From a virus, in IMG/VR virus record IMGVR_UViG_3300028591_004246, positions 64,001-93,199 of that record: DNA of 29,199 nt; one strand, given 5' to 3'. The notes below the pieces were generated by a model that did no database searches, had not been told where the DNA came from, and worked only from the letters and a program-made list of their open reading frames with translations. Positions within the stretch are counted from its first letter, which is position 1; every line of letters starts with the position of its first letter. This document shows positions 69 through 26,400 of the stretch, one piece after another. Both the position numbers and the translations under genes were made by a program.

Positions 69-1139
69 ATGGCTTTTTATGATAAAGATGAAGTTAAAAA
101 TGCCTTAGATATAGAAGATGTATTTGATATTTTAGAATCATTAAATGCTGAGCCAGACTTGCGGGAAGATTATATTATAGCTATTACAGTTTGTCATGGT
201 GGAGATAGTCATAAACTATATTATTATGATAATACTAAACTTTTCAAATGTTTTACTCATTGCGGAACAATGGATATCTTTGAATTATTAATGAAAATTA
301 AACAAATAGATTTAAATACTGCTGTATCTTATATTGTTAATTTCTTTAATTTGGGTTGGAAAATTAAAAATAAAGATAATATTGATAATTTTTTAGACTG
401 GAGAATATTAGATAAATATGAATATATAACTAATATTAAAATTAACAATCAAAAAGCAGTTTTTCCAGAAATTGATTCTAAAATTTTACAACATTTCCCG
501 CAACCTAGAATATTAAATTGGGAACAAGAACATATACCAAAAGAAATAAGTGATTATATGGACATTCATTATAATCCTTTAACCGGAGGTATCCTTATTC
601 CGCACACGGATGAAAATAATAGATTAATTGGTATTAGAGAAAGAACTTTAGTTCAAGAAAATGAGAAATATGGTAAATATCGTCCAGCAAGAATTAATGG
701 CAATATGTATAACCATGCTCTTGGATTTAATTTATATGGTTTCTATCAAGCTAAAGAAAATATTAAAAATACTCAAATTGCTTTAATTTTAGAAGCTGAA
801 AAAAGTGTTCTTCAAGCAATTAATTATTTAGGAATAGCAAATAATATAGCTGTTGCAGTTTGCGGATCAACCTTATCTTCATATCAATTGCAAATGCTAT
901 TGGACATAGGAGTAAAAGAAATTGCAATAGGTTTTGATGCTGATTATCAAAAAATTGGAGATAAAGAATATGAAGAAACTATAAAAAAATTTGAAAAAAT
1001 ATATAATAAATATTGTGGATATGTTAATATAAGTTTTTTATTTGATATAAATGGTGATTTATTAGAATATAAAAATTCTCCAACAGACAAAGGAAAAGAT
1101 GTATTTTTTCAATTATGGAGAAATAGAGTATTCTTATAA
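69..1139 (+). CDS. DNA primase, DnaG-like (zinc finger + TOPRIM)
   Basis: Intact 356-aa ORF with no in-frame TGA. The N-terminus carries a Cys/His zinc-binding pattern (CHGGDSH...KCFTHCG) like the primase CHC2 finger. Later acidic motifs (LILEAEKS, IGFDADYQ) fit a TOPRIM fold. It is the first gene of a replication gene cluster. Confidence 0.6.
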   Translation: MAFYDKDEVKNALDIEDVFDILESLNAEPDLREDYIIAITVCHGGDSHKLYYYDNTKLFKCFTHCGTMDIFELLMKIKQIDLNTAVSYIVNFFNLGWKIKNKDNIDNFLDWRILDKYEYITNIKINNQKAVFPEIDSKILQHFPQPRILNWEQEHIPKEISDYMDIHYNPLTGGILIPHTDENNRLIGIRERTLVQENEKYGKYRPARINGNMYNHALGFNLYGFYQAKENIKNTQIALILEAEKSVLQAINYLGIANNIAVAVCGSTLSSYQLQMLLDIGVKEIAIGFDADYQKIGDKEYEETIKKFEKIYNKYCGYVNISFLFDINGDLLEYKNSPTDKGKDVFFQLWRNRVFL

Positions 1140-1154
1140 AAGGAGGTTTTTAAA

Positions 1155-2912
1155 ATAAATATTAAAGAATATAATAGTCCAAATCCTTTATATACTCCAA
1201 TTCAACAAGTTCTTTATAACAGAGGTATTCCAATAGAAGAACAAGAAAAATGGTTAAATGCTGATTGAAGATATATTAATGATTGAAGAGCTTTTGGAGA
1301 AGAAAGGGTGCGGGAAGCAGCGTCAATTATTTATAAAGCTCTTAAAAATAATGAACGTATTTCAACAGTAGTTGACCCAGACGTTGATGGATTTACATCG
1401 GCCGCAATTATGATTAATTTTATTAATAATTATTTTCCAAAATATATTAATGAAAATTTTTACTATGTACTTCATTCTGGTAAACAACATGGTTTAGCTG
1501 ATATTGATTTACAAGATATTGTTGATAGAGGTACTAGTATAATGTGGATTGGTGATGCTGCTAGTAATGATTATGAACAACATAAGTTTTTAGTAGATAA
1601 CGGTATAGATGTAATTATTACAGACCATCACGAATGTGACGAATATAGTCCATATGCAATTACTATTAATAATCAAATGTGTGACTATCCAAATAAAAGT
1701 TTAAGCGGTGTTGGTGTTACTTGGCAACTTTGTAGAGCAATTGAAGAGATTTATCAATTAGGCGATTATACTTCTAAAATGGTTGATTTAGTTGCTTTAG
1801 GTGTTTTATCAGATATGATGGATTATCGGCAGATAGAAGTTAGAGCTTTAGTAAATCTTGGTTTAAATGCAATTACCAATCCTTTTTTCCGTGGAATGAC
1901 TATTAAGAATAAATACTCTATTGATAAAATGAATGGTATTAATTATTTTTCAACTGCTTTTTATGTAACTCCTTATATTAATGCAATCTGTAGAAGTGGA
2001 ACTCTAGCAGAAAAAGAAATTGTTTTTAAAGCTATGTGTATTCCATATGCTTTTCAAAAAATATTAACAACTAAAAGAGGTCATAAAGGTGAAACTGTTG
2101 CTTTATATGAAGAAGCTATTTTAATTGCAGATAGAGTAAAAAGACGTCAAACAAAATTACAAGATGCTTCAATGGCTTTGTTAAAAAATAAAATTGAAAA
2201 AGAGCAACTTCTTAATAATTCAGTAATAGTTCTTTTATGCAACCCTGGCGATGTAGAGCCAAACATTGCTGGATTATGTGCAAATAAAATTCAAGCAGAA
2301 TATCAACGTCCAACTCTTATCTTAATTAAAACACATCAGTTTAAAGATAAAGAAGATATTTATAGAGGCTCTGCCCGCAATTATAGTCAATGTGAAATTG
2401 AAGATTTTCGTAAAGTATGCGAAGATACTGGTGAAACAAGTTTAGCACAAGGCCATCAAGGAGCTTTCGGTTGCTGGATTCCCGAATCTAATTTAGATAA
2501 TTTTATTTTAAAAACAAATGAATATTATAAAAATCTAGATATGTCTCCTACCTATTGGGTTGATTATAATTGGAATAGTAATCAAATTGATTCTAAAATA
2601 CTTTTAGATTTAGCAGATTTAAATATTTTTGGTCAAGAAATACCAGAAGTATTTGTTGCAATAAAAGATGTTTCTTTATCAGAATCTAATGTTACTTTAA
2701 TGAGTCCTGATAAACATCCAACAATTAAGATACAAATAGGAGATGTCTCTATTATCAAATTTAAATCAAGTCAAGAAGAATATGAGAGTTTTATTCAACC
2801 AAATACAAAAATCACTTTAATAGGTAAGCCTGCTAAAAATGAATGGATGGGAAATGTATCTGCTCAGATTTTAATTGATAATTACGAATTAAAAACAGAA
2901 TGGGTATTTTAA
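1155..2912 (+). CDS. RecJ-like DHH-family ssDNA exonuclease/phosphoesterase (start codon uncertain)
   Basis: DHH motifs VVDPDVDGFTSAAIM and ITDHH are present. The reading frame is open back to the primase stop at 1137-1139. The upstream region (PLYTPIQQVLYNRGIPIEEQEKWLNADWRYINDW) resembles the RecJ N-terminus and contains two in-frame TGA codons (1266-1268, 1284-1286) read as Trp. A strong SD, AAGGAGG, sits at 1140-1146, but there is no ATG. The start is therefore placed tentatively at ATA 1155; the ORF track begins at GTG 1308. Confidence 0.6.
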
Positions 2913-2990
2913 CCTCTGCAAGCACGAATATTTAGCAAAAACACGCCTGGGAAATTTTTTAATCGAATCCCTTAAAAAGGAGAAAAACAA

Positions 2991-3158
2991 TGTCAAAAAA
3001 TAATCAAGTTCAAGATGATAATGAAAAACTTCGTAAAGATTTTAAGCGTTTTATTAATAGTAAAAAGTTTATTGATTTTATAGTTCAAAATGCTCCAGAT
3101 ATTTATGTTTCAACTATTATTTTTGAGGCTCTTGATAAAGCATTAAAGGAAATTTAAT
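2991..3158 (+). CDS. hypothetical small protein (55 aa)
   Basis: ATG preceded by AAAGGAGAAAAACA. Encodes a 55-aa basic protein (MSKNNQVQDDNEKLRKDFKRF...) that falls below the ORF-track length cut-off. It lies between the RecJ-like gene and the polymerase promoter. Confidence 0.4.
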
Positions 3159-3187
3159 TGACAACTTTTAATTTATAATGATATAAT
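3158..3187 (+). promoter_or_regulatory. sigma-70-type promoter upstream of Pol III alpha gene
   Basis: -35 TTGACA at 3158-3163, an 18-nt spacer, and an extended -10 TGaTATAAT at 3179-3187. It lies about 30 nt upstream of the GTG start at 3217, and an AAAGGTG SD follows. Confidence 0.6.
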
Positions 3188-3216
3188 ATTAATGTAAGAT
3201 AAAATAGTGACGAAAG

Positions 3217-6200
3217 GTGTCAATTTTGAATCAAAGGGTAAGCATTCATAATCACACTTATTTTAGTAATCTTCGCCTACTTGATGCTTTATCGTCACCA
3301 GAGGCGTTGATTGACAAAGCAATTGAATTAGGTCTTGCAGGAATCGGAATTAGTGACCATGAATCTTTATCAAGTCATGTTAGAGTAAATAAATATGCTC
3401 AAAAAATTAAAGAAGATTATCCAGATTTTAAAGTAATTCTAGGTAATGAAATTTATTTAACTAAAACTAGAGATTCAGGACAAAAATATTATCACTTTCT
3501 TTTAGCTGCTAAAGATGAAATTGGTCATAAAACTATGCGGGAATTATCAAGTATTGCTTGGTTAAATAGTTATTTTGATAGAGGTTTACAAAGAGTTCCT
3601 ACACTTTATGATGAATTAAAAGAAATTGTTTTAAAATATGGTAAAGGTCATCTTATTGCTAGTTCAGCATGTATAGGTTCAAATCTTGGACAAAATATTT
3701 TAAAAATGCGAGAAGCAGATATTATTGGAGATATTATTTCTCGTAAAGAAGCACATGATGATATTGTTAATCATGTATTATTTTGTCAAGATTTGTTTGG
3801 AGATGATTTTTATTTTGAAATTGCTCCAGCATTATATGAAGAACAAATTTATGTTAATCAAAAAACTTATGAATTAAGTAAAATATTTGGAACTAAAGTG
3901 ACAGTTCAAGATGATAGTCATAGAATAACTCAAGAAGATTATATCGCTCATAAAGCTCTCCTTAATAGTAAACAAGGAGAGCGAGAAGATATTGATAGTT
4001 TTTATCAATATACTTATCTTCAAAGTTATGAAGATATTAGAAAACATTTAGCTCCAACCAATTTAGATTGTGATGAACTGTTTGCTAATAGTATGGAAAT
4101 TTATAATAAAGTAGAAGAATATTCTTTACTTCATAATCAGAAAGTAGTTCAAGTAGCAGTACAAGATTTTCCTAAAAAAGAAAAAACTGAATTAGATAAA
4201 GAAAAATATCCTGTTTTAAATTCTTTATATAATAGTGACAATATTCAAGAAAGAAATTGGGTTAATCAATGTATTAATAAACTTAAAGAAAAAAATATCT
4301 TTAATGATTTATATTTAGCAGAATTAGAGTATGAAGCAGATATTCAAAAAGTTGTCGGAGAAAAATTAGGAACTTGCTTATTTGCTTATCCTCTTTTTCT
4401 TCAACACTATATTGATTTATTTTGGGAGTGCGGAAGTCCTGTTGGAGTCGCTAGAGGATCGGGCGCAGCTGGTCTTAACCACTATCTTCTTGGTATTACT
4501 CAGTTAGATCCCCTTAAAGAAGGTTTTAAATATTGGCGATTTCTTAATAAAGAGCGCCTAGAGCTACCAGATATAGATATAGATACGGCACCAGATCGAA
4601 AACAAGCAGTCTTTAGTAAAATAAGAGAAGAACGAGGTCCACTTGGTTTAGTTCAAATTTGTACATTTGGTACTCTAAGTAGTCGAGCATCTGTACAAAG
4701 TGCTTGTAGGGGTTATAGGTCAGCTGAATATCCAAATGGAATTGATGTAGATGAAGCTCAATATTTAACTTCTCTTATTGGTAGTGAGAGAGGTTTTGTA
4801 TGGAGTATCCATGATACTGTTTATGGTAATCCAGATAAAAATAGGAAACCTGTTAAAAATTTTGTTAATGCTGTTAGTAAATATCCAGGTTTATTAGATA
4901 TTATTCTTAAACTTGAAGGTTGTATATCTCATAGAGGTATTCATGCAAGTGGAGTTCTCTTTCTTGATAAAGGTCATGAGTATGATATTAATGCATTAAT
5001 GATGGCTCCTGATGGATCAATAACAACACAATATGACCTTCACGATGCAGAGTCAACTGGAAATGTTAAGTATGACTTTCTTTATACAGATGTTGAAAGC
5101 AAAATAGCTCAATGCCTACAACTTTTACAAGAACACGGTAAAATTGAAAAAGATTTAACTTTACGTGAAGCTTATAATAAATATTTACACCCAGATGTTC
5201 TTCCAATGGAAGAAGATAAGCTTTGGGATGCAATTGATAAAGCAAATATTCCTAGTCTTTTTCAATTAACTTCTATGGTTGGTTCTCAAACAGTTAAAAA
5301 ATTAAGACCTAGAAATATTAAAACATTAAATGATGTTAATGGTATTATGCGTCTTATGGCTGATGATAGTGGTGAGTCTCCAACAGATAGATATGCAAGA
5401 CTTCAAAATAATCCTCAACAATGGGAAGATGAAATGAATTATTATAATCTTACCCAAGAGGAAAAGAATGTTATTAGAGAGTATGTCAATAATGGAGTTT
5501 TAATTGATCAAGAGACTCTAATGAGAATTCTTATGGATGAAAGAATTTGTTCATTTTCTCTTAAGGAGTCTAATGCAGCTCGTAAAATCGTAGCTAAAAA
5601 ACAAATGAATCAAATTGAAAAACTTCATCAACAAATTCTTAATAAGGCAACAAGTGAAGCAATGGGAAAGTATCTATGGTTCCTCTTAGCTCCGTCTATG
5701 GGTTATTCATTCAGTTCCATTCATGGAACAAGTTATAGCTATATTGCCGTTCAATGTGCATATCTTGCCACATATTTTCCATCTATTTATTGGAATACTG
5801 CTTGTGTACGAGTAGATGCTGGATTAGGATTAGATGATACAACCGCATATGAAAAAATTGCTAGAGCATTAGGAAATATCAAAGAACAAGGTATTGGTAT
5901 TTCAACAATTGATATTAATAAATCTGGAATGTCTTTTGAACCAGATGAAAAAAACAATACAATTATTTATGGATTAAAAGCACTTAATGGAGTAGGTGGA
6001 GAAATTACTCAACAAATTATTGATAATAGACCTTATACTTCTGTTGATAATTTTAAAGAAAAAGTTAAAGTAAATAAAACTGTAATGATATCTTTAATTA
6101 AATCTGGTGCTTTTGATGAATTTGGTCCAAGAGACAAGATAATGAGAGATTATTTATATATCACGTGCGGGCCAAAGAAAAGAATTACTCTTCAAAATTT

Positions 6201-7041
6201 TAAAGGTTTAATGGATAGGAACCTTATCCCGCAAGAATTTGAATTTCAAAAAAGATTATTTGTTTTTAATAAAGCATTAAAAGCAAATTGTAAAATTGGT
6301 GATATGTATGGTATAAACTTTAATTATTATGATTTTTATGAAGAGTTTTTTGATACATCATTACTTGAACCTCTTGGTCAAGGTTTAGGAATTCCTCAAA
6401 AAACTTGGGATAAACTTTATAAAAATGGAATGGATCCTGTAAGAGATTATTTTAAAGCAAATCAACAAGAAATTTTAGATTTATTTAATAATACTCTTTT
6501 ACAAGAAGAATGGGATAAGTATGCTCAGGGAACTCTTTCTACATGGGAAATGGATTCTTTATCTTTTTATTCTCATGAACATGAATTAAGTCATATTGAC
6601 AATTCTAGATATAATATAGTAAACTATAATAGTCTTAAAAGAGAACCTGAAATTGAATATATGTTTAAAAGAAATGGACATGATATTCCTATTTATAAAA
6701 CTTTTAGAATTGCTGGAACTGTAATTGCTAAAAATAGCACTAAATCAATTGTAACTATTTTAACAACAGATAATAATGTTGTAGATGTTAAGTTTACAAG
6801 AGATTATTTTGCAAAATATAATAAAAGAATTAGCGAAATTGGCTCAGATGGGAAAAAACATATCATAGAAAAAGGATTCTTTGATAAAGGAACATTAGTA
6901 ATTATTAATGGTTTTAGACGTGGAGATATGTTTGTTTCTAAAAAATATTCAAGAACAAAAAGTCATCAATTATATAAAATTATTAAAATTAATCAAGATG
7001 GAAGTCTTGAGATAACAAATGATAGAGCAGGAGAAGAATAG
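3217..7041 (+). CDS. dnaE: DNA polymerase III alpha subunit (DnaE-type) with N-terminal PHP domain
   Basis: Uninterrupted 1274-aa ORF with a GTG start. The PHP motifs HNHTYFS...GISDHES are present. The catalytic-region motif GVARGSGAAGLNHYLLGITQLDPL matches the DnaE PGRGSAAGSLV..LGIT..DPL signature. At least 11 Trp residues are all encoded by TGG, with no TGA. Confidence 0.9.
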   Translation: MSILNQRVSIHNHTYFSNLRLLDALSSPEALIDKAIELGLAGIGISDHESLSSHVRVNKYAQKIKEDYPDFKVILGNEIYLTKTRDSGQKYYHFLLAAKDEIGHKTMRELSSIAWLNSYFDRGLQRVPTLYDELKEIVLKYGKGHLIASSACIGSNLGQNILKMREADIIGDIISRKEAHDDIVNHVLFCQDLFGDDFYFEIAPALYEEQIYVNQKTYELSKIFGTKVTVQDDSHRITQEDYIAHKALLNSKQGEREDIDSFYQYTYLQSYEDIRKHLAPTNLDCDELFANSMEIYNKVEEYSLLHNQKVVQVAVQDFPKKEKTELDKEKYPVLNSLYNSDNIQERNWVNQCINKLKEKNIFNDLYLAELEYEADIQKVVGEKLGTCLFAYPLFLQHYIDLFWECGSPVGVARGSGAAGLNHYLLGITQLDPLKEGFKYWRFLNKERLELPDIDIDTAPDRKQAVFSKIREERGPLGLVQICTFGTLSSRASVQSACRGYRSAEYPNGIDVDEAQYLTSLIGSERGFVWSIHDTVYGNPDKNRKPVKNFVNAVSKYPGLLDIILKLEGCISHRGIHASGVLFLDKGHEYDINALMMAPDGSITTQYDLHDAESTGNVKYDFLYTDVESKIAQCLQLLQEHGKIEKDLTLREAYNKYLHPDVLPMEEDKLWDAIDKANIPSLFQLTSMVGSQTVKKLRPRNIKTLNDVNGIMRLMADDSGESPTDRYARLQNNPQQWEDEMNYYNLTQEEKNVIREYVNNGVLIDQETLMRILMDERICSFSLKESNAARKIVAKKQMNQIEKLHQQILNKATSEAMGKYLWFLLAPSMGYSFSSIHGTSYSYIAVQCAYLATYFPSIYWNTACVRVDAGLGLDDTTAYEKIARALGNIKEQGIGISTIDINKSGMSFEPDEKNNTIIYGLKALNGVGGEITQQIIDNRPYTSVDNFKEKVKVNKTVMISLIKSGAFDEFGPRDKIMRDYLYITCGPKKRITLQNFKGLMDRNLIPQEFEFQKRLFVFNKALKANCKIGDMYGINFNYYDFYEEFFDTSLLEPLGQGLGIPQKTWDKLYKNGMDPVRDYFKANQQEILDLFNNTLLQEEWDKYAQGTLSTWEMDSLSFYSHEHELSHIDNSRYNIVNYNSLKREPEIEYMFKRNGHDIPIYKTFRIAGTVIAKNSTKSIVTILTTDNNVVDVKFTRDYFAKYNKRISEIGSDGKKHIIEKGFFDKGTLVIINGFRRGDMFVSKKYSRTKSHQLYKIIKINQDGSLEITNDRAGEE

Positions 7042-7059
7042 AAATATTCTTCTCCTTTT
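7030..7059 (+). terminator. perfect 11-bp stem-loop spanning the Pol III stop codon, followed by TTTT (attenuator or partial terminator)
   Basis: GGAGAAGAATA (7030-7040), loop GAAA, TATTCTTCTCC (7045-7055), then TTTTG. The TAG stop at 7039-7041 lies inside the stem. The RBS GGAGATAAAATG of the next gene follows immediately. Confidence 0.5.
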
Positions 7060-7068
7060 GGAGATAAA

Positions 7069-7383
7069 ATGAATGAATATTGATTTGTACATGAGCCTAA
7101 ACCTGAATGGGTGCGGGAATTGCAAGAACAAGGAATTTTAACTGGCCCTGAATATGCTGCTGTAACTATAGTATATACTTTTTATACAGGAGAACATAAA
7201 GATTATCTTTATGATGGAGATGCTTTAATTAAAACTACAGAAGGTATTATTGCTCCAATTTCTTATCAGTGGATAGACAGAGCTAAAAGAAAAAATCCAG
7301 ATATGAAATTATATTCACCAGTTGAAGGACAAATGGAAGAAATTCTTGCATCTATTTATTCCAATTTGGGCAAAAATAAATAA
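7069..7383 (+). CDS. hypothetical protein (104 aa)
   Basis: ATG at 7069 with SD GGAG 7-8 nt upstream. The frame is open through a TGA at 7081-7083 (Trp) and joins the track ORF 7111..7383. No recognisable motif. Confidence 0.5.
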
Positions 7384-7445
7384 ATTGTAAATTTTTAATT
7401 ATATTATAAATAAGTGAGCACAAAATCTAGTATAGGGAGGAATAG

Positions 7446-7649
7446 ATGATTACACTTTATAGTACAGGTTGTCCTCGTTGTAAAGTTTTAGAGCAAAAAC
7501 TTCAACAAAAAAATATTGATTTTAATATAGAATCAAATATGCAAACTATTATTGATATGGGTTTTAGAGCAGCTCCTATTCTTAAAGTAGATGAAAACTT
7601 TTATGATTTTGGAGGAGCTATTAAGTGGGTAAATTCATATGAAGATTAA
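7446..7649 (+). CDS. nrdH: glutaredoxin-like / NrdH-type redoxin
   Basis: 67-aa ORF with a CPRC redox motif near the N-terminus and an overall thioredoxin-fold pattern. SD GGGAGG lies upstream. It sits immediately upstream of nrdD and overlaps it by 11 nt. Confidence 0.6.
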   Translation: MITLYSTGCPRCKVLEQKLQQKNIDFNIESNMQTIIDMGFRAAPILKVDENFYDFGGAIKWVNSYED

Positions 7650-9603
7650 TATGAAATTAAACCGCAATTTTACAACTCAATATAATAAATTGCAAGGTGA
7701 ATTTGGAACAGAAATTGCAGAATTAAATGGTTTTGGAGATGAGCAACTTTCTTATACGGATTTTATTTCTAATTTTATAGATAAACAAACAGTAGCAGAT
7801 GCTTCTATTGATAGTAATTCAAATGTTAGTCATAAAGATATTGTAACTTTAGAAAGAGAAATGCCTAAACCCCACTCTAAACTTTTAGCTTTTAATAAAA
7901 TTTATTATGAAATTCAGAAGAAATATGGATTTAAAACAGCTAATGAATGGTTGCGGGCAGAGTGGATAGGTCAGCTTTATATGCACGACGCTCCATCATC
8001 AACATTTAGACACTATTGTTTTGCTTATGACTTAAAAGATTTAGCAGAAAGAGGGTTATACTTCTTTCCTGAAAGAAATGCTAAACCAGCAGAGCATTAT
8101 ACAACTTTTATTGATTTTGTAAAAGAGTTTGTTAATTATACTTGTAATCGATCTTCAGGTGCAGTAGGGTTGCCAAATCTTCTTCCATATATGTTTTACT
8201 TCTGGAAAAAAGATATAGATGACGATTATCTAGGCATACGAACTTCAGGCAATGAACGATATTATGCTGATCAGGGATTCCAACGATTTATTTACGCGGT
8301 AAACCAAAACATCATGAGAGATGGTTCACAATCAGCTTTCACAAATACATCAATTTTTGATCGGCCATATTTTGAAGCTCTTTTTGGTGGATCGACATTC
8401 CCTGATGGAACCTTTATGATTGATTATGAAGAAGAAATAATTGAATTTCAAAAATGGTATATGGAAGTTATGTCTGAAATTCGATCAACTAATATGTTAA
8501 CATTCCCAGTAAACACAATATCTCTTCTTCGTAAAGAAGGAAAATATGATTTAAACACTCTTGATGGTTTCGTTGATCAAAATTTTGCAGAGTGGGCTAT
8601 TAAACATAATATGAAATGGTCAGATTCAAATATTTTTCAAGATACATCTGTTAATAGTTTATCAAATTGTTGTCGATTAAAAAGTGATATTGCTGAGCTT
8701 GGCTATTTTAATAGCGTCGGGGGATCAGCACTTAAAGTCGGATCTGTTAAAGTATCGACAATAAATCTTGCTCGTTTAGCATTAGATACAGATTCAGAAG
8801 AAGAATATTTACAAGAACTTGAATATAGATTAATTTTAAATCTTAAAGCTCTTGATTGTGTTCGTCATATAATTCAAAGAAATGTTGACAAGGGTTTGCT
8901 TCCTAATTTTTCATATGGCTTAGTTGATTTCCCGCATCTTTATAATACAATTGGCTTCCTTGGTGTTTATGAAACAATGAAAAAATTTGGATACACTAAA
9001 GTAGATACGTTAGGTAATACTTATTATACTGATAAAGCTTCTTTGTTCGGTCAGAAAATTTTTGAAACTATTCGTGAAGTATCTAATCAATTTATTAAAG
9101 ATAATAATTTAGATTATAAGATTAATTGTGAACAAATTCCTGGTGAAAATGCAGCAGATAAATTAATGAAAAAAGATAAATTCTTTTATCCAAATGCCAA
9201 TATTTATGATTTACCATTATATGGTAATCAATTTATTCCTTTAGGAATTCAAACTACTGGGCAAGAAAGAGTTAGAATTCAAGCGCAATTTGATGCTTTC
9301 TGTAATGGAGGATCAATACTTCATTATAATATTGATGCACCTTTTACAAGTTACGAAAAAGCTTTATATATGACTAATTATATTGCTCAAAAAGGTGTTA
9401 CATATTTTGCATTTAATACTCGAATTTCTACATGTGAAGATAATCATGCATTTTATGGCAACGGGCTTTGTCCAGTCTGTGGTAAACCAAAAGATGCAGA
9501 GTTTACTAGAATTGTTGGCTTCTATACAAAAATTAACAGTTGGAGCCAGACTCGCAAAGATGAGTTTAAACTTCGTAAATGGGATAACATCAATGATAAT
9601 TAA
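7639..9603 (+). CDS. nrdD: anaerobic ribonucleoside-triphosphate reductase (class III), NrdD
   Basis: 654-aa intact ORF. It carries the conserved GGSALKVGSVKVSTINLARLAL segment, a C-terminal Zn ribbon (C..C...CPVCG), and a glycyl-radical motif TRIVGFYTK near the C-terminus. No TGA. Confidence 0.85.
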   Translation: MKINMKLNRNFTTQYNKLQGEFGTEIAELNGFGDEQLSYTDFISNFIDKQTVADASIDSNSNVSHKDIVTLEREMPKPHSKLLAFNKIYYEIQKKYGFKTANEWLRAEWIGQLYMHDAPSSTFRHYCFAYDLKDLAERGLYFFPERNAKPAEHYTTFIDFVKEFVNYTCNRSSGAVGLPNLLPYMFYFWKKDIDDDYLGIRTSGNERYYADQGFQRFIYAVNQNIMRDGSQSAFTNTSIFDRPYFEALFGGSTFPDGTFMIDYEEEIIEFQKWYMEVMSEIRSTNMLTFPVNTISLLRKEGKYDLNTLDGFVDQNFAEWAIKHNMKWSDSNIFQDTSVNSLSNCCRLKSDIAELGYFNSVGGSALKVGSVKVSTINLARLALDTDSEEEYLQELEYRLILNLKALDCVRHIIQRNVDKGLLPNFSYGLVDFPHLYNTIGFLGVYETMKKFGYTKVDTLGNTYYTDKASLFGQKIFETIREVSNQFIKDNNLDYKINCEQIPGENAADKLMKKDKFFYPNANIYDLPLYGNQFIPLGIQTTGQERVRIQAQFDAFCNGGSILHYNIDAPFTSYEKALYMTNYIAQKGVTYFAFNTRISTCEDNHAFYGNGLCPVCGKPKDAEFTRIVGFYTKINSWSQTRKDEFKLRKWDNINDN

Positions 9604-10057: not shown

Positions 10058-10065
10058 GAATAAAT

Positions 10066-10308
10066 ATGTATTATAATAATTATTTTAACAACAACAATAA
10101 TACTACTATTTTAATTATAATTATAGCTTGTGCTCTTATAGTTGGTTTAAGTTTTCTTTTATTTGCTTTTGGCTATTGGCTAATAACTTTAATAGCTGCT
10201 CAAATTTTTAATTTTATAATTCCATTTGAATGGACATATGCTTTAGGAGCTTATGCAATATTAATAATTATTAAATTATTTATGTTACCAAGTGGTCAAT
10301 CTAAATAA
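10066..10308 (+). CDS. small hydrophobic membrane protein (80 aa, 2 predicted TM helices)
   Basis: Asn-rich N-terminus followed by two long hydrophobic stretches. It is the last gene before a rho-independent terminator. Confidence 0.5.
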   Translation: MYYNNYFNNNNNTTILIIIIACALIVGLSFLLFAFGYWLITLIAAQIFNFIIPFEWTYALGAYAILIIIKLFMLPSGQSK

Positions 10309-16685: not shown

Positions 16686-16702
16686 ATAATCACCCTTTCT
16701 TT

Positions 16703-17329
16703 CTAATTACCTTGTATAATTTCTTCTATTTCATCATCTGTAACAGCTCTAAATCCAAAGTCCTCTAATGTTTGATTCCCTGTAAGTTCAACTCCATTAA
16801 TAGAAGGTTTATTTGTAACATAAAGATAATCTGTTACGCCTTCGAGTTCAACTTCTTCTAATCATTTTGTAATATCTTCTACACTTTGATTCATAACTAT
16901 TGCAGCTTGTGAAAACAAATTATAATCATCAGAAGCAATAAATTTATCTAAATCTATTGGGTCTGCGGAAATAGTAACTTGAAAATCATCTGTTCCAATT
17001 AAACTATTATTATCAACTTTTTCAATTTTACAAATAATATGTCCTTCTTGAATCATTTTTGATGGTCAAGCTATTTCTCAGACTGGATTAATTTTTAAAG
17101 TTTTATCTCCAACTTCAATACAATTAAATACATTATAGCCTTGAATATCTAATTCTTGATGATGCCATTTTAAATAAATTTTAGTAGAAGAAGTAAAAAC
17201 AGAAGCAGCTTCTTGAGAAAAAATTACTTTTAATTTTTTTCCATTAATATCATTGCCACTAAATATCATATCTTCTATTGGTTGATAAAAAGATTTTATT
17301 TCTAAAATACAAGAAGTTAATGATAACAT
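16703..17329 (-). CDS. hypothetical protein (208 aa; 3 TGA-Trp codons)
   Basis: Track ORFs 17078..17335 and 16862..17056 share one frame and are joined by in-frame TGA codons (17078-80, 17066-68, 16862-64). The frame continues to a TAG at 16703-16705. A likely ATG is at 17329 (GAGAGGTG upstream), or alternatively GTG at 17335. Confidence 0.5.
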
Positions 17330-17376
17330 ATTCACCTCTCCCTCTAATCAATTCTCACTAAAATTATTATAAAATA

Positions 17377-17405
17377 GGGCATCTTACTTTTTGTAAAATG
17401 CCCTA
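17377..17405. terminator. weak hairpin downstream of giant gene
   Basis: AGGGCAT (17377-17383) pairs with ATGCCCT (17399-17405) around a 15-nt loop. There is only a short flanking A/T tract. Confidence 0.3.
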
Positions 17406-17414
17406 AAATTTTTA

Positions 17415-20400
17415 TTAATTTTGTTCTGGAATATAGAAGTAGCCCTTGTCTGTATTATTATTAACAGAACCATCTTTACGATAAGCAATATAAATAGTAT
17501 GCGGGATTCCTTCCAAATTCTCAAACTTTGCTTCTTTATAATTCATATTAGAGTTACCATAAGTATTATAATTATAACTACTAGTAGTTGGTTGAGCATC
17601 TATCTTCATAATCAAATAGTCATAATTAGATTCTCCATATGAACAATATTTAATAATAAATGTATCATATCCATCAATATTAATCATACAAGTATCAGTA
17701 GTGTTATGTTGATTTGTATGTTTACTACTATAATATACTGTATGACCATCTACTTGAGTTCCACTATCAGCTCATTCATCATTGTTAAGGTCTATAGTAT
17801 ATTCTTGTTGAATTAATATTACTCTTAATATCTTTGTAGCAGTTATACTATTATCATAAATACTAGTAGCTGTAATAATTAAAGTATCTCCATCAGAAGC
17901 ATTTACTAATTTAACTAGACCATTAGTATCAATAGTAGCATTACCTTCAATAGACCAAGTCACTCCACGATATTGCGGGTCAACATCAATACTATCATCT
18001 GGGTCTATATAGACAGGAGTTAATTGAGCAACTCTATCATAAACATCTTGTTTATAACAATTGATAGTTTCAATATTGGAATCTAATCTTATAGATACTA
18101 ATTCTTTATCAGAGCCATCTTTAAAAGCGCTTAAAACATTTTTCCATTGATAAGCTGCTTTATATGTTGGGAATAAACTTAATGGAATATAAATAGAGGT
18201 TACACCAGTAGAAGAAAGATATGTATTAGTATCTGAATTAAAGTTTTTAAATACTCCACGAGCATAAACTGTTCTAAGATTTGTCGCATATCTAAATATT
18301 TCTGATGTAGAATTAACTGCTGAAAAATCTCAACCAGAAATATCTATTGTATTTAATTTATCACAATAATAAAATAATCCATATAAATCTGTGACTGTTG
18401 AGAATGTTCATTTAGACATATCGAGTTCAGTAATTGCTCTATCATATCAAAACATTTGTCTAATAGTAGTAAGATATGGAGTATGCATTTCTCCAAAATG
18501 AATACTTGTTAAACTAGGATTATTTGCAAACATAGCTTGCATTGTAGTGACATTTGTTACATCCAATAGATCAAAGTCAAAAGTTTTAATTCTTGTTTCA
18601 TTAAAAGCATGACTTAAACTAGTAATTTGTGAGGTTTCACTATTAATAATATCAAAAGAGCCAATCTGATAACGACCACTTAAAGTAATATAAGTTCCAC
18701 TAAAATTATTAAATGTAATATTTAATGTACCAGCGCTAATATCATTCATAGTAGAAATAATGGTACTAATTCTACCGCAATCACTACAATTAATAAATTC
18801 TGTATTGGTAATTTTACTATCATAACGAAACATGTTAGATACATTTGCGGAAGATGGTATATTTGGAATAATAACACTCGTTAAATTTGAACAATTTGCC
18901 ATTGAATATTGTAAATTATTAATTTTATCAACAGATAATTTTGTAGCATCAAGAGTTGTCATTTTACCTTCATAGAAAGCATAATTAAAATTACAATCTG
19001 CTTGTTCTCGCATATTTCATTTTGAAGTATCTAAAATAGTTAAATAAGGACACATATGGAAACAATATGTATAATTAGTTACATTTGAAAAATCCATATT
19101 AATATCTTTAAGATTATGAATTCCAGTTCCCGCATAAGCATAATTTAATGAATTAGGTTTATTTCTTTCATGAATAACAATTTCTCCATTATTACTTTCA
19201 ATTCAATCAATCATATTAATATTTTTAATTCTAATAGCACTTCTAATAAATTCATTAAAATTATTATTAATAGTACCTTCAACAATTAAAGTAATAAAAC
19301 TATTACTATTATTAGCTCCATTACAAATTCATCTAATTAAACTATTTCCACCTGTTCAACCATTACATTCAGAAAAATAAATATTTTGAAGAGCAGAACA
19401 ACCTTTTAAACAATCAGTAGCATAGCCACTACTATAATCATAAAGTTGCTTAGCATTCCTAAATTCAATTGTGTCAAGAGTAATACAATTTTCAAACATA
19501 TGAGTCATATGTAAATAATAAGCTCGATTAGCAACTACTAAATTTGGAAATTCTATATAATCAATAGACGTACATTCTGCAAACATATAATCATAATAAA
19601 TATCTGTTCCTTTATTAATATTCATATTATAATTTTCAGGGAAAATAATCGTTTCAAGTAAACCACATTGATAAAACATATATCTTGAATTTTGAATTTT
19701 AGTAAAATTAGAATAACCAATATCTACAGTTATTAAATTAATACATCCAGAAAACATATACTGAGTATTATTTACATTTCCAACATTTCAAGTAGTCATA
19801 TTTATTTCTGTAATAAATACTTCCATATTATTTACAGTAGTTCCAGAATCTTCCATAAATTTAATTTTAGTTATTGCTCTACAATTTTGAAACATGTAAG
19901 ACATATTAGTAATAGGAGAAATATCAGCATCATTTGTAGTTGTTGTTAATCTAAATCAATCAATATAATCTAATTCATAACAATCTTGGAACCAACCTTG
20001 CATACTAGTAATTCCAATAAATTTAGAATATTTTAAATCAATAGATTTTAAAGCTCAACATCCAGCAAATAAATATTGAGCGCCAGAATCACTTAATTCA
20101 ACAAAATTTACACTACTTAAAGTTAAATTTGTTAAAGAATGACAATTAATAAACATTCTGCTAATATTAGTAGCTCTACATGGATTAGTAAATAAATAAT
20201 TAATATTTAAAGTTTCAAGAGCATAACAATTTCCAAACATATATTCTAAGCTTCTATCACCAGCTCATGGATAACTATTATTATTTTGTCCAACTCTTGT
20301 AAATGAAACATTATGTAAATCTAAAGATTTTAAAGCTCTGCAATGATTAAACATACCTTGACAATACATAACATTAGAAAATAATCAGCCATTATCTCCT

Positions 20401-23400
20401 TGATGTGTATTAATTTCTTCAAGAGCATAACAATTTTGTAACATACAGGTTGTACTATAAGCACCAATCATATTAAAGTGTTGATTTAAAGTTTTTAAAG
20501 TATAACAGTGTTGAAACATATATTGGAAATTAGTACATTTTTGAGAAATAAAACTATCAGGAAAAGTTAATTCTTCAAGAGCATGGCATCCTTCAAACAT
20601 CCCGTCAACTCTTTGAAGATTTGCTCCTCCAAAGGTTTCTGGAATTCTAATTGATTGAAGAGCATAACATCATTGAAACATTCTTTCTGCACTAGTATTA
20701 TTTATCATTGTAAAAGTATCTGGAAGATATAATTCTTCAAGAGACTCACAATAACAAAACATATACGTAGCATTATCTCCACTTCATAAAGAAGTATTAA
20801 AATTAGGAATCAAGAGATGCTGTAATGATTTACAATTATAAAACATTTGATAAAAATCAGAACATTTAATAGTATTAAAACTTGTTAAATCTAACTCTTG
20901 TAAAGATTGACAATCATAAAACATTTCATACATTGTAGTAACATTTTCTGTTGAAAAATTATTAAAATCTAAAGTTTCAAGTTTAGTACATGCATAAAAC
21001 ATTTCATTAAAAGTAGTTACTAAATCTGTATTTAATGGAGTTAAATCAAAAGTTACTAAAGAAGAACAATAACAAAACATATTAGCACAATTAGTTAAAC
21101 TGTGTCAATATTCCATACCACTAATATCTAAAGTAGTTAAATTAATACAATCATAAAATAAATTAGATACATTTTTAATACTTTGTCCTTGAGCCCCTCA
21201 TGTAGACATATCAATAGTAGTACCTCTATATCCTCTAAATAAATTAGCAATACTAGTACAAGTATTAATATTTCACTCTTCTAGATGAAGATCAACACTA
21301 CTACCACAATAAGTTCCGCCTATTGATTTTCCTGCTAAATAGAAAGTATTATTTCTATAAATAACTCTTTGTAATGCTGAGCATCCTCAAAATTGAGCCT
21401 GAATATTTTTAACATGTTCAGTCCAAAAACTAGAAAGATTAATAGTTCGAATAGTATTAGCATTTAAAAACATTACTGCTCAATTAATAGAAGTAGTTGT
21501 TTCTTGAATATTTCATTGAGACAAATCTACACTAGTTCCCTTATAGCCACTAAACATTGCTACAAAACTTGTTTGCTGTGAAACATCTCAATGACCAATG
21601 TTTAAAGGAATTTTAATATTATAAAACATTTGCCCAACTGCTGTATAATATGTATATCTCATACTTCCATTAGTACCAGTATCAATTCATCTTGTAGAAT
21701 AGTTTTCATTACTTCAATAATCAATTGAATTAGCCTTCATTATAAATGAATTTGTTTCAAAAGTTTTAAGTTTAGAACAATTATAAAACATAGCTTCAAA
21801 ATTTACAACTTTAGAAGTATTAAATGTTTGAATTTTTAAAGTAATTAAATTAGTACATTCAGCAAACATTTCTGCCATACTTGTTCCTTGAGAAGTATCT
21901 CAATTAGAAAATATTAATTCCGTACCTTTATAACCATAAAACATTCTAATAAAATATTTCATTAAAGAGGTATTAAAAAGAGTCAAATCATGAATTTGTC
22001 CTATACTTCCATTGAACATGTCTCTAACATTTACACTAGAATGGAACTTTCATTCATTTGTTATATACAAATCCTGTAAATTAGAGGTTCCATAAAACAT
22101 TTCTGACATATTGGTACAAAATTCAATATTAAAGTCTGAAAGAGTAATTGTAATTGCCTTACAGTTATAAAACATTTGTGACATATTAATACAAGATTCG
22201 GTATTAAAATCTAAAAGAGTAACTGTAGTTGCTTTACATTCTCTAAACATCTGCGACATATTGGTACAAACTTCTGTATTAAAATTTGAAAGTGCGATTG
22301 TAGTTAATACAACATTTGTATTATAAAACATTTGATACATTGTTGTTACATGAGAAACATCTCAAGTAGAAATATTAATTTCTGGAAGAAAACATCCACC
22401 AAACATATAAGTCATATCTGTAACTGAAGAAGTATCCCAAGTATTAAATAAAATTCAAGGAGCATGTACATCTGCAAAAGTATTAATCATATTCTGTACA
22501 GAAGAAATATCTCAAGTAGATAAATCTAATCCATTAGTAAAAGTAGACAGCCTAAACATAGCTCTGAAAGAAGTAATATTAGAAACATTTCAATTTGCAA
22601 CGTTTATATTTGTAAAAGTTGAACGATACAACATTGCTCTTAAATTAGTAATATTACTAAAATCTAAATTTTCAGCTTCTAATGTTCCAATAGTAGAATC
22701 ATAAAAGAAACTAAAATCACTATCTCAACTAGGAATATTTGTTAAACTAGTAATATCTCAATCTGTAATATTAATTAAATTTGCAGTACATCCTCTAAAA
22801 ATAAATTGCATATTAGTACAATTACTCATATCTCAGGTTCTTAAATCTAATTCAAGACTAGATGTTCCCATTTCTCTAAACATACCACTAGCATTTAAAA
22901 CTTCACTAGTATCAAGAATATCTAATCCTTCAATAGACTGCAAACCTTTTAATTTATAAAACATATTCATACTATTAGCATTTAAAATAATAGGTGCTGC
23001 AACTTCAAAAGTAATAGTAATTGTTCCAGTATTATTATCTCAATTAGCTACTACTGGAGAACCTTGAGAACCAATAGCAATACCAGATTTTTGAATACCA
23101 TTTTCAAATATTATATGTTTAATTTTAGTATCTTCAAAATTACCATCTGTAACATTACTTCCATTTGCCATACGTTTAATAGTATAAGAAAATTCACCAC
23201 CAGAAATTAATCTAGAATTATATTTTTCTGGAAGAAGCGGAAAATCATAATATGTTTCTACTTTAATAGGAATATCTTCATTTCAAACAGTATACATATT
23301 TTGAACACCAGTATACATATCTTTAGGAAATTGCATTGGATATAAAACTATATTATAATCTAAGTAAGTAGGAGAGACATAGAAAAACGCTCTATCCTCA

Positions 23401-26400
23401 TTTGAATCAACACTACCATCCTTACGATAAAGTAAAGTAATAATATGCGGATTATCATCATAAATTTCATATACAACTGTAGTATATGCTGTACTTGGTT
23501 TTTGATAAGTATGATATTCACAATTAGAAGTTGATAATCCAGAAGTTTGATCGAGTTTACTAACAATTAAATAATCATAACTTGATTCTCCATTAGAACG
23601 AACTCTAATAGAAAATCTTGAATAACCTTGTATAGTTAAATAACAATAAGCATTTCCATTAGCAATATGATAATTAGAATTACTTTTATAAATTTGAGAA
23701 CCATTTATAGCATTATCACCATCTTCAATCCATTGGTCATTTAAATCAATAGATCAAGAAGCATCAGATAGGTGTTTAATAGAATATCCTTCTATTTCTG
23801 CATTTCTAGCAGTATCATAAAATTGTCCTATATCCATTTGCTGCATAGCTAAACAATTATATAAACCATTCTCTTTTTCAGTATAATTAAATAACGTTCT
23901 ATGTTTGCGGAAATCGAGGTATGTCATACTTTCACAACCAGAAAAAATTTCTCGCATATCCCGCAAATAATTAGAACACAATAATACTATATTAGTTTCA
24001 ATAGCTTTGCAATTCATCATCATTTGATAAGCTGAAACTACAGTGTTAAATATAATTTCAGGATAGGCTTCTTGTTTAATTTCTGTTAAATTATAACAAT
24101 TCTTAAACATTTTATCAGCATTTTTAATATACATAAAAGGAAATACTTTAGTAACTAAATCATATGTAGGAGCTGCACCTGTAGATTTTGTTCCTTTTGG
24201 TCAAATAATTTTTTCAAGTTCATAACAATTTTCAAACATTGATGACATATTACCAATATTTTCAGATGTTAAACCAAGATTACCATTATTATTATATGGT
24301 AATCCAGTAGCTTGAGCTAAATTATGATAAGTTTGGAACATTCAAGTACTTAAATCAATTTCTTGTAATTTTCTACAATCTTTAAATATTCTAACAAATC
24401 AATATTTTTGACTATTACTAGTATTTTCAGAAGGAGAATATTCGGTTGTAGTACCTCTTCAATCACCAAATTTTAGATTAACTAAAACTAAATTTTCAAG
24501 ATTATAACAACCATCAAAAGTTCCTTCAAATTCTTGAGTTGTATTATAATTAGTAATATCTATAGGTCTATCATTTGGAAATTTAATACTTGTAATTTTA
24601 CGACAATTATAGAAAGTTTCTTTTAATGAAGTTAATTGAATATCATAACCGCCATATTGTAATCAACTTCTACTATATCCTGTAATTCAATTATAACCAG
24701 CATTAGGATCAATCTTAGAAATAAATTTAGAAAAATCTATACTCATTTCTAAATTTTTACAATTATAGAAAGTTTGACTTAAATTTCATAAAACCATATT
24801 TTGAGAGCCATTACTTGATTTATCAAATTGACCATTAGTAGTAATACTCTTTAAATTAGTAATATCAATTAATGACCCACAATTATAAAACATTTGTTTA
24901 AATTGATTATTAGAATGTCTATCAACATAATAAGTTCAATTATTAGAAGTATAATATCTTCTAAATGCTAAATTAATTTTTTCAGGTAAAATAATATGTT
25001 TAACATTTATACATTCTTTAAACATTCCTTCATAACAAGGACCATTAAAAACATTTGAATATTTTAAATTAATTTCTTCTAAAGATTTACAATTATAAAA
25101 TAAATAAGAATAATCGTATAAATTTGTAAAAAAGAAATATTTTAAATCTAAATTTTGTAAAGATTCACAATTATAAAAACATCTACCTACTAATTCAGTC
25201 TTTCTTCAATAAGCACTAAAACCAAGAGGCTGAGCATATTGTCCATGTAAATCTGTAATTGTAATTAAGGATTTACAATTATAAAAAATTCTATCAAAAT
25301 TACAATATAAATAACAATTAGACATATCAAGTGCGGGAAGAGATTCACAATTTTCAAACATACTAGCAGCTTTTACAAGACGTCCATGAAATTCCATTTT
25401 AACAAAATCTAAATTAATTAAAGATTTACAATTACAGAACATATAAGAAACATCTGTGACACCTCTTGTTCTTCATCTATCAAAAATAATAGATATTAAA
25501 GATTCACAGTTTAAAAACATTTGATTTGTAGAGTATAATCATGGACTTTCAACATCTCCCATATCCAAAGATTGGAGATTAATACAGTCTTTAAACATTT
25601 TTTTAATATCTCTAGCCATATGCCAATTAAAATTAGATAAATCTAATTGAGTTGCCAAACAACCCTCAAATAAATTATTAAAATAAATATTTTCTTTATT
25701 AAATTGTGCGGTCAATTGCTCATAAATCACATCTGGCAACCAAGCAAAAATATAATCTTTCTTTCTTGGAAATATAATTGAAGAAATATCAATTTCTCTT
25801 AAATTATTACATCCAGTAAACATATATGACATATCTTGAACATTAATTGTATTAAAATTAGATAAATCTGCAAAAAGTAAGGAAGCACAATTATAAAACA
25901 TATAAGACATATCTATAACATTATTTGTATCAAAATCTTTAAAATCAATTAAACTTAAAGATTCACAATTACTAAATAAATGTGTCATATCTGTTACTTT
26001 AGAAGTATCTATATTTTCAGGAAGTATAAGTTCTTTAAGATTTTTACATCCATTAAACATATATTCCATATCTATAACGTTAGAAAAATTAAAATGAGAT
26101 AAATCAATATAATCAAATAATTCACAATTATTAAACATATAACTTGTATCAGTTAATGTTTGTAGTTCTAAATTAGATAAATCTACGGTAATAAGCGAAA
26201 AACATCCGTCAAACAAATGAGAAATATTTGTAATATTTTCCCATTGAATCTTATTGAAATTGTTTATGCGTCGTAATTCCCGCATATCATAAAAAGTATA
26301 TTCTGCATTATCTCTAATTACAAAATTTTCAGCTCTGGTTTGAATAATAATTTTTTTAGTGTCACTATTATAATAAATGTATGGCCCAACATATTCTATA

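Follow-up and report, generated by a model that had tools for sequence, protein, structure and literature searches.

Why should the GC-rich heptamer TGCGGGA occur again and again in a phage genome with a G+C content of 28.3%, and what could be reading it? The question was raised by a 29,199-bp stretch of viral DNA (IMG/VR record IMGVR_UViG_3300028591_004246, positions 64,001 to 93,199), which was analysed as a whole and is called the window here. Exact matching on both strands found 17 copies of TGCGGGA in the window (9 on the plus strand and 8 on the minus strand). The original prediction, which was made from the sequence of the window, had listed 16 copies, and all of those positions were right, but a minus-strand copy at 19128 had been overlooked. 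Markov models of order 0 to 2 gave an expected count of 0.33-0.43, and 100 dinucleotide-preserving shuffles of the window had a mean of 0.30 copies and a maximum of 3, which agrees with the earlier rough estimate of less than one copy by chance. By over-representation, TGCGGGA ranked first among the 7-mers of the window. Under the order-3 background that had been suggested as a check, the 17 observed copies were still well above the 4.3 expected, and orders 4-5 raised the expectation to 13-17, but models of order 3 or higher approach the observed count because the sub-words of the motif itself feed such models. When the window was joined with flanking pieces of the same phage into a composite of 69,128 bp (smaller composites of 49 kb and 59 kb are named where they were used), TGCGGGA was found 48 times (28 on the plus strand and 20 on the minus strand) against 0.81 expected, which means an enrichment of about 60-fold. 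The density of the heptamer is approximately one copy per 1.4 kb, and that of its core, TGCGG, approximately one copy per 0.6 kb. The effect is real and much larger than had been stated before, and the genome is best classed with those phage genomes that are saturated with a Chi-like word. Four candidate roles had been proposed for the heptamer, among which the Chi-like one is now the best supported, and the scatter of 48 copies is at odds with a single packaging site.

The reading frames of the sites showed at which level the word is selected. All 44 core sites of the window lie in open reading frames (ORFs), 22 in sense and 22 in antisense orientation, and all six frame/strand classes are represented. 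As had been noticed earlier, the heptamer in the coding sense mostly uses the codon CGG: nine of the ten sense copies read xTG CGG GAx, which gives [L/M/V]-R-[D/E], and the antisense copies give P-H, P-Q or P-A. The full heptamer thus favours the phase where CGG (sense) or CCG (antisense) forms a codon. CGG accounts for 13 of approximately 280 Arg codons, and TG precedes 11 of the 13 in-frame CGG codons. Although CGG is a rare codon, 8 of the 18 [L/M/V]-R-[D/E] tripeptides in the proteome (44%) were written with the motif, and the same was true for 5 of 7 [F/I/L/V]-P-[H/Q] tripeptides (71%), in which CCG is the rare codon, and for only 1 of 24 x-A-G tripeptides. Synonymous-codon shuffles (n = 1000), which preserve all protein sequences together with the codon usage of early genes and of late genes, yielded 0.69 copies of TGCGGGA with a maximum of 4, compared with 17 observed. 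An origin in a protein motif or in codon usage was ruled out by the frame analysis and these shuffles. The sites lie in unrelated proteins and multiple frames and do not derive from one protein motif in one frame, so the proposal of selection at the DNA level rather than the protein level was upheld.

It is hardly credible that the word has no function and that its excess results from base composition, from codon usage, from a protein motif that is repeated or from errors of assembly. Markov models of order 4-5 do "explain" the count, and other over-represented words of the window (TATATGTTT and CAAATGTTT) do stem from a protein repeat. However, the high-order models are built on the motif's own sub-words, the synonymous-codon shuffles fall far below the real count, and the sites are scattered over unrelated proteins, several frames and both strands. 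Besides, two independent assemblies at 2% divergence retain all heptamers, and the signal is present in more than 12 independent relatives. The sequence around the 17 heptamers was not conserved except for a weak preference for A right after the heptamer, no AT-rich flanking tracts were seen, and searches for transfer RNA (tRNA) genes and Rfam families gave no tRNA and no Rfam match. A structured RNA, a tRNA or the ends of a mobile element as the source of the motif were ruled out in view of the unrelated flanks and these searches. A literature search for the heptamer TGCGGGA itself found no paper describing the word.

The fate of individual sites was then followed in relatives of the phage. 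In a codon alignment of the polymerase gene, the Arg at 3536 was conserved in four relatives and was spelled there AGA, CGA or CGT. Because the relatives keep this Arg with other codons, CGG at 3536 means Arg and the site arose by synonymous change; a reassignment of CGG to another amino acid was ruled out for this site, the one that was checked. The polymerase genes of five phages have 4-11 core sites each, and nearly all of them are in differing alignment columns. Compared with a strain at 2.1% divergence, the heptamers were all retained, and among the other core sites five were lost and four gained; the retention of the heptamers is not significant at this distance, since only about two changes were expected by our estimate. 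The L-numbers used below denote loci of related phages that were compared with the phage of the window. Compared with L039 (approximately 12% DNA divergence), seven of nine heptamers were kept, two were lost and five were new elsewhere, and as 60% of random 7-mers were also kept, the heptamers were not significantly more conserved than random words. Among the other core sites only 7 of 17 were kept and 10 were lost, against 67% kept in the control, while L039 has 14 new core sites including heptamers. Turnover of sites at steady density means that the number of sites is maintained, not their places, and the word is maintained by selection on the DNA itself, not on the protein. As a separate observation, in the comparison with the 98%-identical IMG/VR strain each of the five TGCGG losses, together with two of the four gains, mapped to the SPFH gene or immediately upstream (12170-12800), and this segment seems to be a local hotspot of between-strain divergence.

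The original prediction had treated the heptamer as the unit, which did not hold: the core is TGCGG, and it is this core that is enriched through a clade of relatives. The window has 44 TGCGG against 5.7 expected and 54 GCGG against 14, and the 69,128-bp composite has 122 TGCGG (68 on the plus strand and 54 on the minus strand) against 14 expected, or 1.7 per kb. Counted in the 49-kb composite that was built first, the word was strict at positions 1-5 (AGCGGGA 1, CGCGGGA 2 and GGCGGGA 0 copies) and looser at positions 6-7 (TGCGGAA 11 vs 1.4 expected, TGCGGGC 11 vs 0.3, TGCGGCA 5 vs 0.7). TGCGGGA is this phage's preferred extension of the five-base core TGCGG, i.e., TGCGG[G>A][A>C]. The one-mismatch variants that had been reported exist, but most of their coordinates were off by one and further copies were found at 12299, 598 and 14091. 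In the window, TGCGGGC is at 6166, 7952, 9683 and 12299, TGCGGGT at 17974, AGCGGGA at 27358, and TTCCGCA at 15511, 26518, 598 and 14091. The extended forms GGGTGCGGGAA (1306 and 7109) and TGTGCGGGA (12752 and 13288) each occur twice, just as had been described.

Quantitative analysis of related loci showed that TGCGG was 4-8-fold enriched in the metagenomic relatives L003, L004, L006, L008, L024, L025, L029, L034-L036, L038 and L039, where it is mostly followed by [A/G/C]A, and the polymerases of these relatives are 41-97% identical to that of the window phage. In several relatives, TGCGGAA and TGCGGGA are both among the top heptamers. The enrichment is therefore shared by a very abundant uncultivated family of SPbeta-like phages. 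It is not a general trait of SPbeta-like or low-GC phages, which was ruled out by the lack of TGCGG excess in SPbeta (100 kb sampled), Enterococcus phage VRE9_3, Mammaliicoccus phage phi6255 and a Bacillus prophage; phages with homologous endolysins (L022 and L023) had no excess either. Two other IMG/VR relatives, L009 and L010, also had no TGCGG excess, and GCGC, CGCGC and GCGCGC were enriched instead and dispersed over the locus (CGCGC 25 vs 3.4 expected), with CpG not depleted there (observed/expected 0.95). A tie of this enrichment to the Lactococcus Chi was unsupported, as GCGCGTG occurs once in each locus. In the structural regions of L034 and L035, the top heptamer was CCCCCCC/GGGGGGG, with 19 and 13 overlapping matches against approximately 0.5 expected, which suggests long poly-C/G tracts in or near tail genes.

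Is the orientation of the sites selected as well? TGCGGGA holds four G and one C, and from the GC skew of approximately 0.17 on the coding strands, composition alone predicts by simple arithmetic an approximately 2.8-fold bias to the G-rich coding strand, but the observed ratio was near 1:1. In the 69-kb composite, consecutive core sites switched strand more often than expected (79 runs vs 61.2, P = 3.5e-4 by label shuffling). The alternation was reproduced by the first extra 10 kb appended to the composite, and in the last 10 kb, which lie in a 3014-codon gene, there was no alternation but a run of plus-strand sites. Combined across the loci of ten relatives, the tendency to alternate had a Stouffer z of 2.84. 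Per-strand spacing of core sites was approximately 1.1-1.2 kb, and the spacing of same-strand sites in the 59-kb composite was more even than for permuted labels (coefficient of variation 0.85 vs 1.00, P = 4e-4). Even spacing was not significant when the sites of both strands were pooled, and only strand-aware tests were significant. The alternation and the even same-strand spacing show that site orientation is under selection.

These features bear on a second explanation, that the word is a DNA uptake-type sequence which accumulated by molecular drive through a preference of the host's competence machinery, with the phage DNA (as prophage or free) repeatedly taken up and recombined. The Haemophilus uptake signal sequence (USS) has the core AAGTGCGGT, which includes TGCGG, and GCGG is its critical part. 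The phage word resembles the USS and the Neisseria DNA uptake sequence (DUS) in its density of approximately one copy per kb, in the equal use of both orientations, in its location mainly within genes in few preferred frames, in its fast turnover at steady density and in the presence of inverted pairs. Unlike the phage word, USS and DUS have 9-12 bases with flanking context and come from two Gram-negative families, and nothing comparable is known in Firmicutes. Sequence-specific uptake is known just in Pasteurellaceae and Neisseriaceae, but the phage studied here has genes of the SPbeta type and an endolysin of the Gram-positive type (GH25 + CHAP), and its word has no conserved extension past 7-8 bases and no AT-rich tracts beside it. 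Moreover, strand alternation is unexpected of a signal that is blind to orientation, and the drive would need frequent recombination of phage DNA via transformation. We therefore regard an uptake-type sequence as very unlikely.

Close neighbours showed a further orientation effect. Among the core sites of the composite that are 30-100 bp apart, convergent pairs (TGCGG ... CCGCA) numbered 13, as against 3 divergent pairs and 7 with both sites in one orientation (P = 0.001). Spacings in the composite vary from 36 to 93 bp, and just the core word is common to the partners. The close convergent pairs in the window are 1309/1402, 6166/6229, 12299/12373, 13290/13349 and 23906/23961. One of them, the heptamer pair 13290 (+)/13347 (-) at 13289..13354 within the gene 13187-13894, forms the 9-10 bp inverted repeat GTGCGGGAC(A)...(T)GTCCCGCAC, which had been singled out before. 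This repeat is present and lengthens to 10 bp when folded as DNA (-13.9 kcal/mol, z = -2.5), but it is not a special structure, only one case of the wider excess of convergent pairs. In the polymerase gene, the alignment to relatives is gapless across the convergent pair, which therefore does not flank an insertion. The excess of convergent pairs was not reproduced overall in the relatives (12 convergent, 7 divergent and 16 in the same orientation) and may be particular to this phage.

Another idea is that the word is the target of a system related to modification or restriction, either a methyltransferase site (of phage or host) kept frequent by a bias of the very-short-patch repair kind or a decoy or "self" mark for a defence nuclease whose site is asymmetric and 5-7 bp long. 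Asymmetric words of 5-7 bp are typical of Type IIS, III and ISP systems, and the restriction enzymes FauI and AciI recognise GCGGG/CCCGC and CCGC. SPbeta-group phages have multispecific cytosine methyltransferases (mtbP in SPbeta), and CpG is depleted in the phages studied here (observed/expected 0.36-0.75). The targets of Type III and ISP enzymes (EcoP15I CAGCAG, LlaGI) are likewise 5-7 bp asymmetric words for which the head-to-head orientation of neighbours matters to the enzyme. However, phages normally avoid restriction targets, and exposed phages lose such sites or carry all of them on one strand, whereas the word here is approximately 60-fold enriched with the strands balanced. Type III and ISP enzymes cut at head-to-head pairs, so the excess of these pairs would be the worst arrangement for the phage. 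The known repair-driven biases (Dcm/Vsr) are small, the five-base core turns over faster than the background, and the neighbouring words that deamination would produce show no depletion. In the 69 kb, part of whose ORFs were searched against family libraries, no gene for a methyltransferase came to light. On balance, a modification or restriction target appears most improbable.

We tentatively propose, while granting that it may well prove wrong, that TGCGGGA acts as a Chi mimic for the AddAB/RecBCD of the host. The signal would be a dispersed, orientation-dependent DNA word with the core TGCGG, and the reader would be the host's end-processing nuclease. A short asymmetric word that is even on each strand, free of position and fast in turnover fits an enzyme that tracks along one strand and needs to meet a site soon from any starting point. 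Known readers of this kind are two, the host nuclease that processes double-strand ends and the primase of the phage itself. In the proposed mechanism, the word would be, or would resemble, the Chi of the AddAB/RecBCD-type helicase-nuclease of a low-GC Gram-positive host. A nuclease entering at a double-strand end of the phage DNA (the injected end, the tail of a concatemer or a broken fork) would soon reach a correctly oriented site, where it would cease to degrade the 3' strand and turn to RecA loading, and the phage DNA would be repaired or recombined rather than destroyed. By extension of earlier work on Chi and adaptation by clustered regularly interspaced short palindromic repeats (CRISPR), fewer substrates for CRISPR spacers would also be expected.

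Among Firmicutes, the known Chi site is AGCGG in B. subtilis, GAAGCGG in S. aureus and GCGCGTG in L. lactis (bioRxiv 10.1101/2021.07.08.451572), and Chi sequences have a common GxGG core that is read by AddB (PMC3321194). TGCGG contains GCGG, i.e., a GxGG core, and is one base off the B. subtilis AGCGG. Phages rich in the Chi of their host have been described: the density in LLS is one per 1.86 kb, and the 94.8 kb of P1 contain 50 copies, 31 of them on the top strand (PMC12315714). In both LLS and P1, Chi is the commonest octamer (PMC12315714 and bioRxiv 10.1101/2021.07.08.451572), and in the first 50 kb of P1 we counted 15 Chi on the plus and 12 on the minus strand, interleaved. The word studied here resembles that of the Chi-rich phages P1, LLS and Pseudomonas MD8 in being a short, G-rich, asymmetric GxGG word that is the top over-represented one, with a density of one per 1.4-1.9 kb, a location mostly in ORFs, frequent one-off variants and sites that come and go, and as in P1 it is found on both strands. 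Unlike known Chi, its first base is T and not A and it has a selected 3' GA extension, and unlike in the Chi-rich phages, the strands show alternation and not clustering toward the genome ends, and close convergent pairs are in excess. Strand alternation and close convergent pairs are not among the features described so far for Chi-rich phages.

Several observations weigh against the Chi proposal. SPbeta has no excess of the Chi of its own host (AGCGG 37 vs 47 expected), so the accumulation of Chi is not a habit of the family. The phage encodes its own Sak4-type annealase and RecJ-like exonuclease beside the replication genes, but in lambdoid phages a high Chi content accompanies the lack of a recombination module (PMC12315714) or of a RecBCD inhibitor, and as to the module this rule does not hold here as far as the incomplete genome goes. 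Known Chi sites end in GxGG, while a selected GA follows GCGG here. Chi-rich phages of the cos type are strongly one-stranded (20:3 in LLS and 32:0 in MD8), and the excess of convergent pairs at 30-100 bp has no obvious rationale for Chi. Furthermore, the favoured 3' extension varies among fairly close relatives, with GA here and AA, CA or AT elsewhere, which fits a fast-evolving phage protein more easily than a slowly evolving host Chi.

Such a phage protein could be a phage-encoded enzyme that tracks along single-stranded DNA and for which the word is a recognition or initiation site, likeliest the DnaG/YorJ-type primase encoded at 69-1139; we see this as possible though unlikely. A GC-rich priming site in a genome of 28% G+C would allow stable short primers, and both strands would be selected at roughly the spacing of Okazaki fragments. 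The per-strand core spacing given above is near Okazaki-fragment length and more even than chance, and orientation matters. Phage primases do read words of 4-5 bases, such as 5'-(G/T)2GTC-3' in T7 and 5'-(G/C)GGA-3' for AtTwinkle (PMC12839067, PMC5737085). Primase, DnaB (from just upstream of the window), DnaE and a type II topoisomerase are all supplied by the phage itself, and the bases flanking TGCGG differ between relatives, as would be expected from a drifting specificity of a phage protein. The likeness to T7-type primase sites lies in a five-base strand-specific word on a single-stranded template and in a repeated need for it on the lagging-strand template. Unlike the word here, however, T7-type sites are common words that, to our knowledge, are not enriched by selection, and no phage is known to us whose primase sites are enriched throughout the genome. 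If the origin were fixed or replication went by rolling circle, selection should act on the lagging-strand template only, which predicts strand bias and not balance. Homologous primases are also present in SPbeta, VRE9_3, L009, L017 and the Bacillus prophage, which are not enriched, and the enrichment does not track the DnaE or the primase tree. In the neighbour-joining tree of DnaE it was patchy: L006 (5.6x) clustered with VRE9_3 (1.0x), L009 (1.2x) was sister to the enriched core clade, and the closest polymerase to that of L007 (3.4x) was SPbeta's (0.8x). The neighbour-joining tree of primases was also patchy. With this patchiness, a determinant outside the replication machinery, e.g., the host, is simpler than an inherited primase specificity, but the separation is not decisive.

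A bolder idea, which we hold to be rather improbable, is a "self" signal of the phage lineage that is not borrowed from the host. A phage tracking machine (a primase-helicase or an unrecognised helicase-nuclease) would read the word and spare DNA with frequent TGCGG sites in alternating orientation while host DNA is degraded. The specificity would then co-evolve with the word (GA, AA and CA extensions), the convergent pairs would be two-way stops, and the word would be a new kind of genome-wide, orientation-coded phage signal. Beyond the explanations listed, some weight is left for something not yet conceived.

For the Chi proposal, the host of the phage is the key. A megablast search against cultured phages gave no match, and a protein search of cultured phages gave 36-38% identity at best. 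A scan of 185,579 species genomes found no close prophage, only a distant Bacillus prophage and Bacteroidota dnaE. The homologues of the endolysin, NrdD and the SPFH protein were all on phage-sized contigs, and none pointed to a host. The endolysin says little about the host, because the phages that carry related endolysins, with a G+C content of 37-57%, are not enriched. Judging from sample names, the source would be ruminant gut metagenomes; the samples with the phage are ENA ERZ27256846 and ERZ27291698 and IMG 3300031992. The same phage is present in an assembly of the European Nucleotide Archive and in a 64.7-kb IMG/VR contig (97.6-98.4% identity), its endolysin is on a 93-kb contig of the Joint Genome Institute, and close relatives reach 150 kb (a family contig of this size is ERZ27291698 k119_1280448).

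The sequence was confirmed as that of a phage by its gene content, which includes replication genes of the SPbeta type, an endolysin gene and giant genes for tail or adhesin proteins. The plus-strand genes at 48-13894 form a replication and nucleotide-metabolism module with a DnaG/YorJ-type primase (69-1139), a RecJ-like DHH exonuclease, a 1274-aa DnaE-type polymerase, NrdD, NrdG, dUTPase and an SPFH protein. Their order matches yorG to yorL of Bacillus phage SPbeta, and the polymerase shares 36-38% identity with the enzymes of SPbeta-group and Enterococcus phages. Just upstream of the module are GyrB and GyrA (type II topoisomerase), DNA ligase, YorF, a Sak4-type AAA_24 protein and DnaB. A late module, in which TGA serves as a sense codon, takes up the minus strand from 13947 onward as far as the window reaches. 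Its frame 17415-29186 is one gene of 3923 codons for a DUF285/BspA leucine-rich-repeat (LRR) protein, with 61 in-frame TGA and no TAA or TAG; the GH25+CHAP endolysin gene (13947-15563) has 17 in-frame TGA and the gene 16703-17383 has 4. Late minus-strand genes have 82 TGA vs 22 TGG, whereas the plus-strand replication genes have 0 in-frame TGA and 45 TGG, and every one of them terminates in TAA or TAG. Read with the standard code, the late module resembles dozens of short ORFs that share a single frame. The original prediction had not recognised the use of TGA as sense on the minus strand, which changes the gene map under half of the sites. Such a layout, standard in the early and recoded in the late genes, has been described for recoded gut phages (bioRxiv 10.1101/2021.08.26.457843).

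With this map, the heptamers of the window can be placed in genes. Two are in the primase gene, a sense copy at 160..166 (+; TTG CGG GAA, L-R-E) and an antisense copy at 496..502 (-; TTC CCG CAA, F-P-Q). The 5' ends of the RecJ-like gene (1309..1315, +) and of a 90-aa ORF (7112..7118, +) both carry GTG CGG GAA within GGGTGCGGGAA. The DnaE-type polymerase gene has the sense copy at 3536..3542 (+; ATG CGG GAA, M-R-E) whose Arg is kept in the four relatives, and an antisense copy at 6227..6233 (-; ATC CCG CAA, I-P-Q) that is convergent with the TGCGGGC at 6166. Further antisense copies are at 8930..8936 (-) in nrdD (TTC CCG CAT, F-P-H), which is lost as TCCCACA in L039, and at 10838..10844 (-) in an 86-aa ORF (CGT CCC GCA, R-P-A), and a sense copy is at 12754..12760 (+) in the SPFH/Band-7 gene (GTG CGG GAT, V-R-D). 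After the convergent pair at 13290 and 13347, the TGA-recoded endolysin gene has an antisense copy at 14895..14901 (+; TAT CCC GCA, Y-P-A). The remaining five are in the giant DUF285/LRR gene: 17500..17506 (+; antisense, near its 3' end, ATC CCG CAT, I-P-H), 19128..19134 (-; the sole sense copy framed GCG GGA, A-G, and not in L039), 23959..23965 (-; sense, TTG CGG GAT, L-R-D, convergent with the TGCGGAA at 23906), 25332..25338 (+; antisense, CTT CCC GCA, L-P-A) and 26278..26284 (-; sense, ATG CGG GAA, M-R-E). Another 27 TGCGG cores outside full heptamers are spread over 261..26524. Fifteen of them are on the plus strand (261, 861, 4429, 6166, 7952, 9683, 12299, 12683, 12761, 16964, 17974, 18846, 23446, 23906 and 25707), and 12 are on the minus strand, given as the start of CCGCA (600, 1402, 2375, 5843, 7662, 9824, 12373, 12539, 14093, 15513, 18775 and 26520).

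Some other features of the window and of the relatives were seen along the way. The words TATATGTTT (17 vs 2.2 expected) and CAAATGTTT (11 vs 1.1) are over-represented mainly in 17415-29186. Judged by eye from the translation, they correspond to Y-M-F/Q-M-F of a repeated "...(Y/Q)MF.(N/E)C..L" LRR unit, and unlike TGCGGGA they are in excess because of the protein repeat. L039 has a 3916-aa counterpart of the 3923-aa LRR protein. Upstream of the 3923-aa gene are further large late genes, with ORFs of 1187, 1238, 680, 749, 558, 594, 1849 and 3014 codons (composite 29199-59136; L015, L033 and L037). At approximately 13900-13950, where the plus and minus modules converge, the hairpin GGGGTACTC-ttaatt-GAGTACCCC stands between an A run and a T run, and looks like a putative two-way intrinsic terminator. 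In L008 (IMGVR_UViG_3300001528_000534), the coverage by long ORFs rose from 0.47 to 0.86 with TAG as sense, so this relative appears to be TAG-recoded rather than TGA-recoded; L003 is TGA-recoded like the window, and L004, L006, L007 and L009 look standard in the parts seen. The nrdD of L039 (4391-7351) is interrupted by a GIY-YIG endonuclease gene, which resembles an intron-type insertion. In L008 and L009 the polymerase match covers 5.1 kb, not 3.8 kb, which suggests an intein or intron.

What does the word mean for this phage family? If the Chi reading is true, the phage sequence reveals the Chi of an uncultivated rumen Firmicute lineage, TGCGG (here TGCGGGA), and the accumulation of Chi against nucleases extends from enterobacterial and Pseudomonas phages to abundant, large, stop-codon-recoded phages of Gram-positive bacteria. 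It may then also counter CRISPR adaptation, and the word would be a host-matching marker for the family, i.e., for genomes that are rich and skewed in the word. If the Chi reading is false, a 60-fold enriched, strand-alternating word with fast turnover at steady density remains a strongly selected genome-wide signal, and it could lead to a new sequence-reading enzyme.

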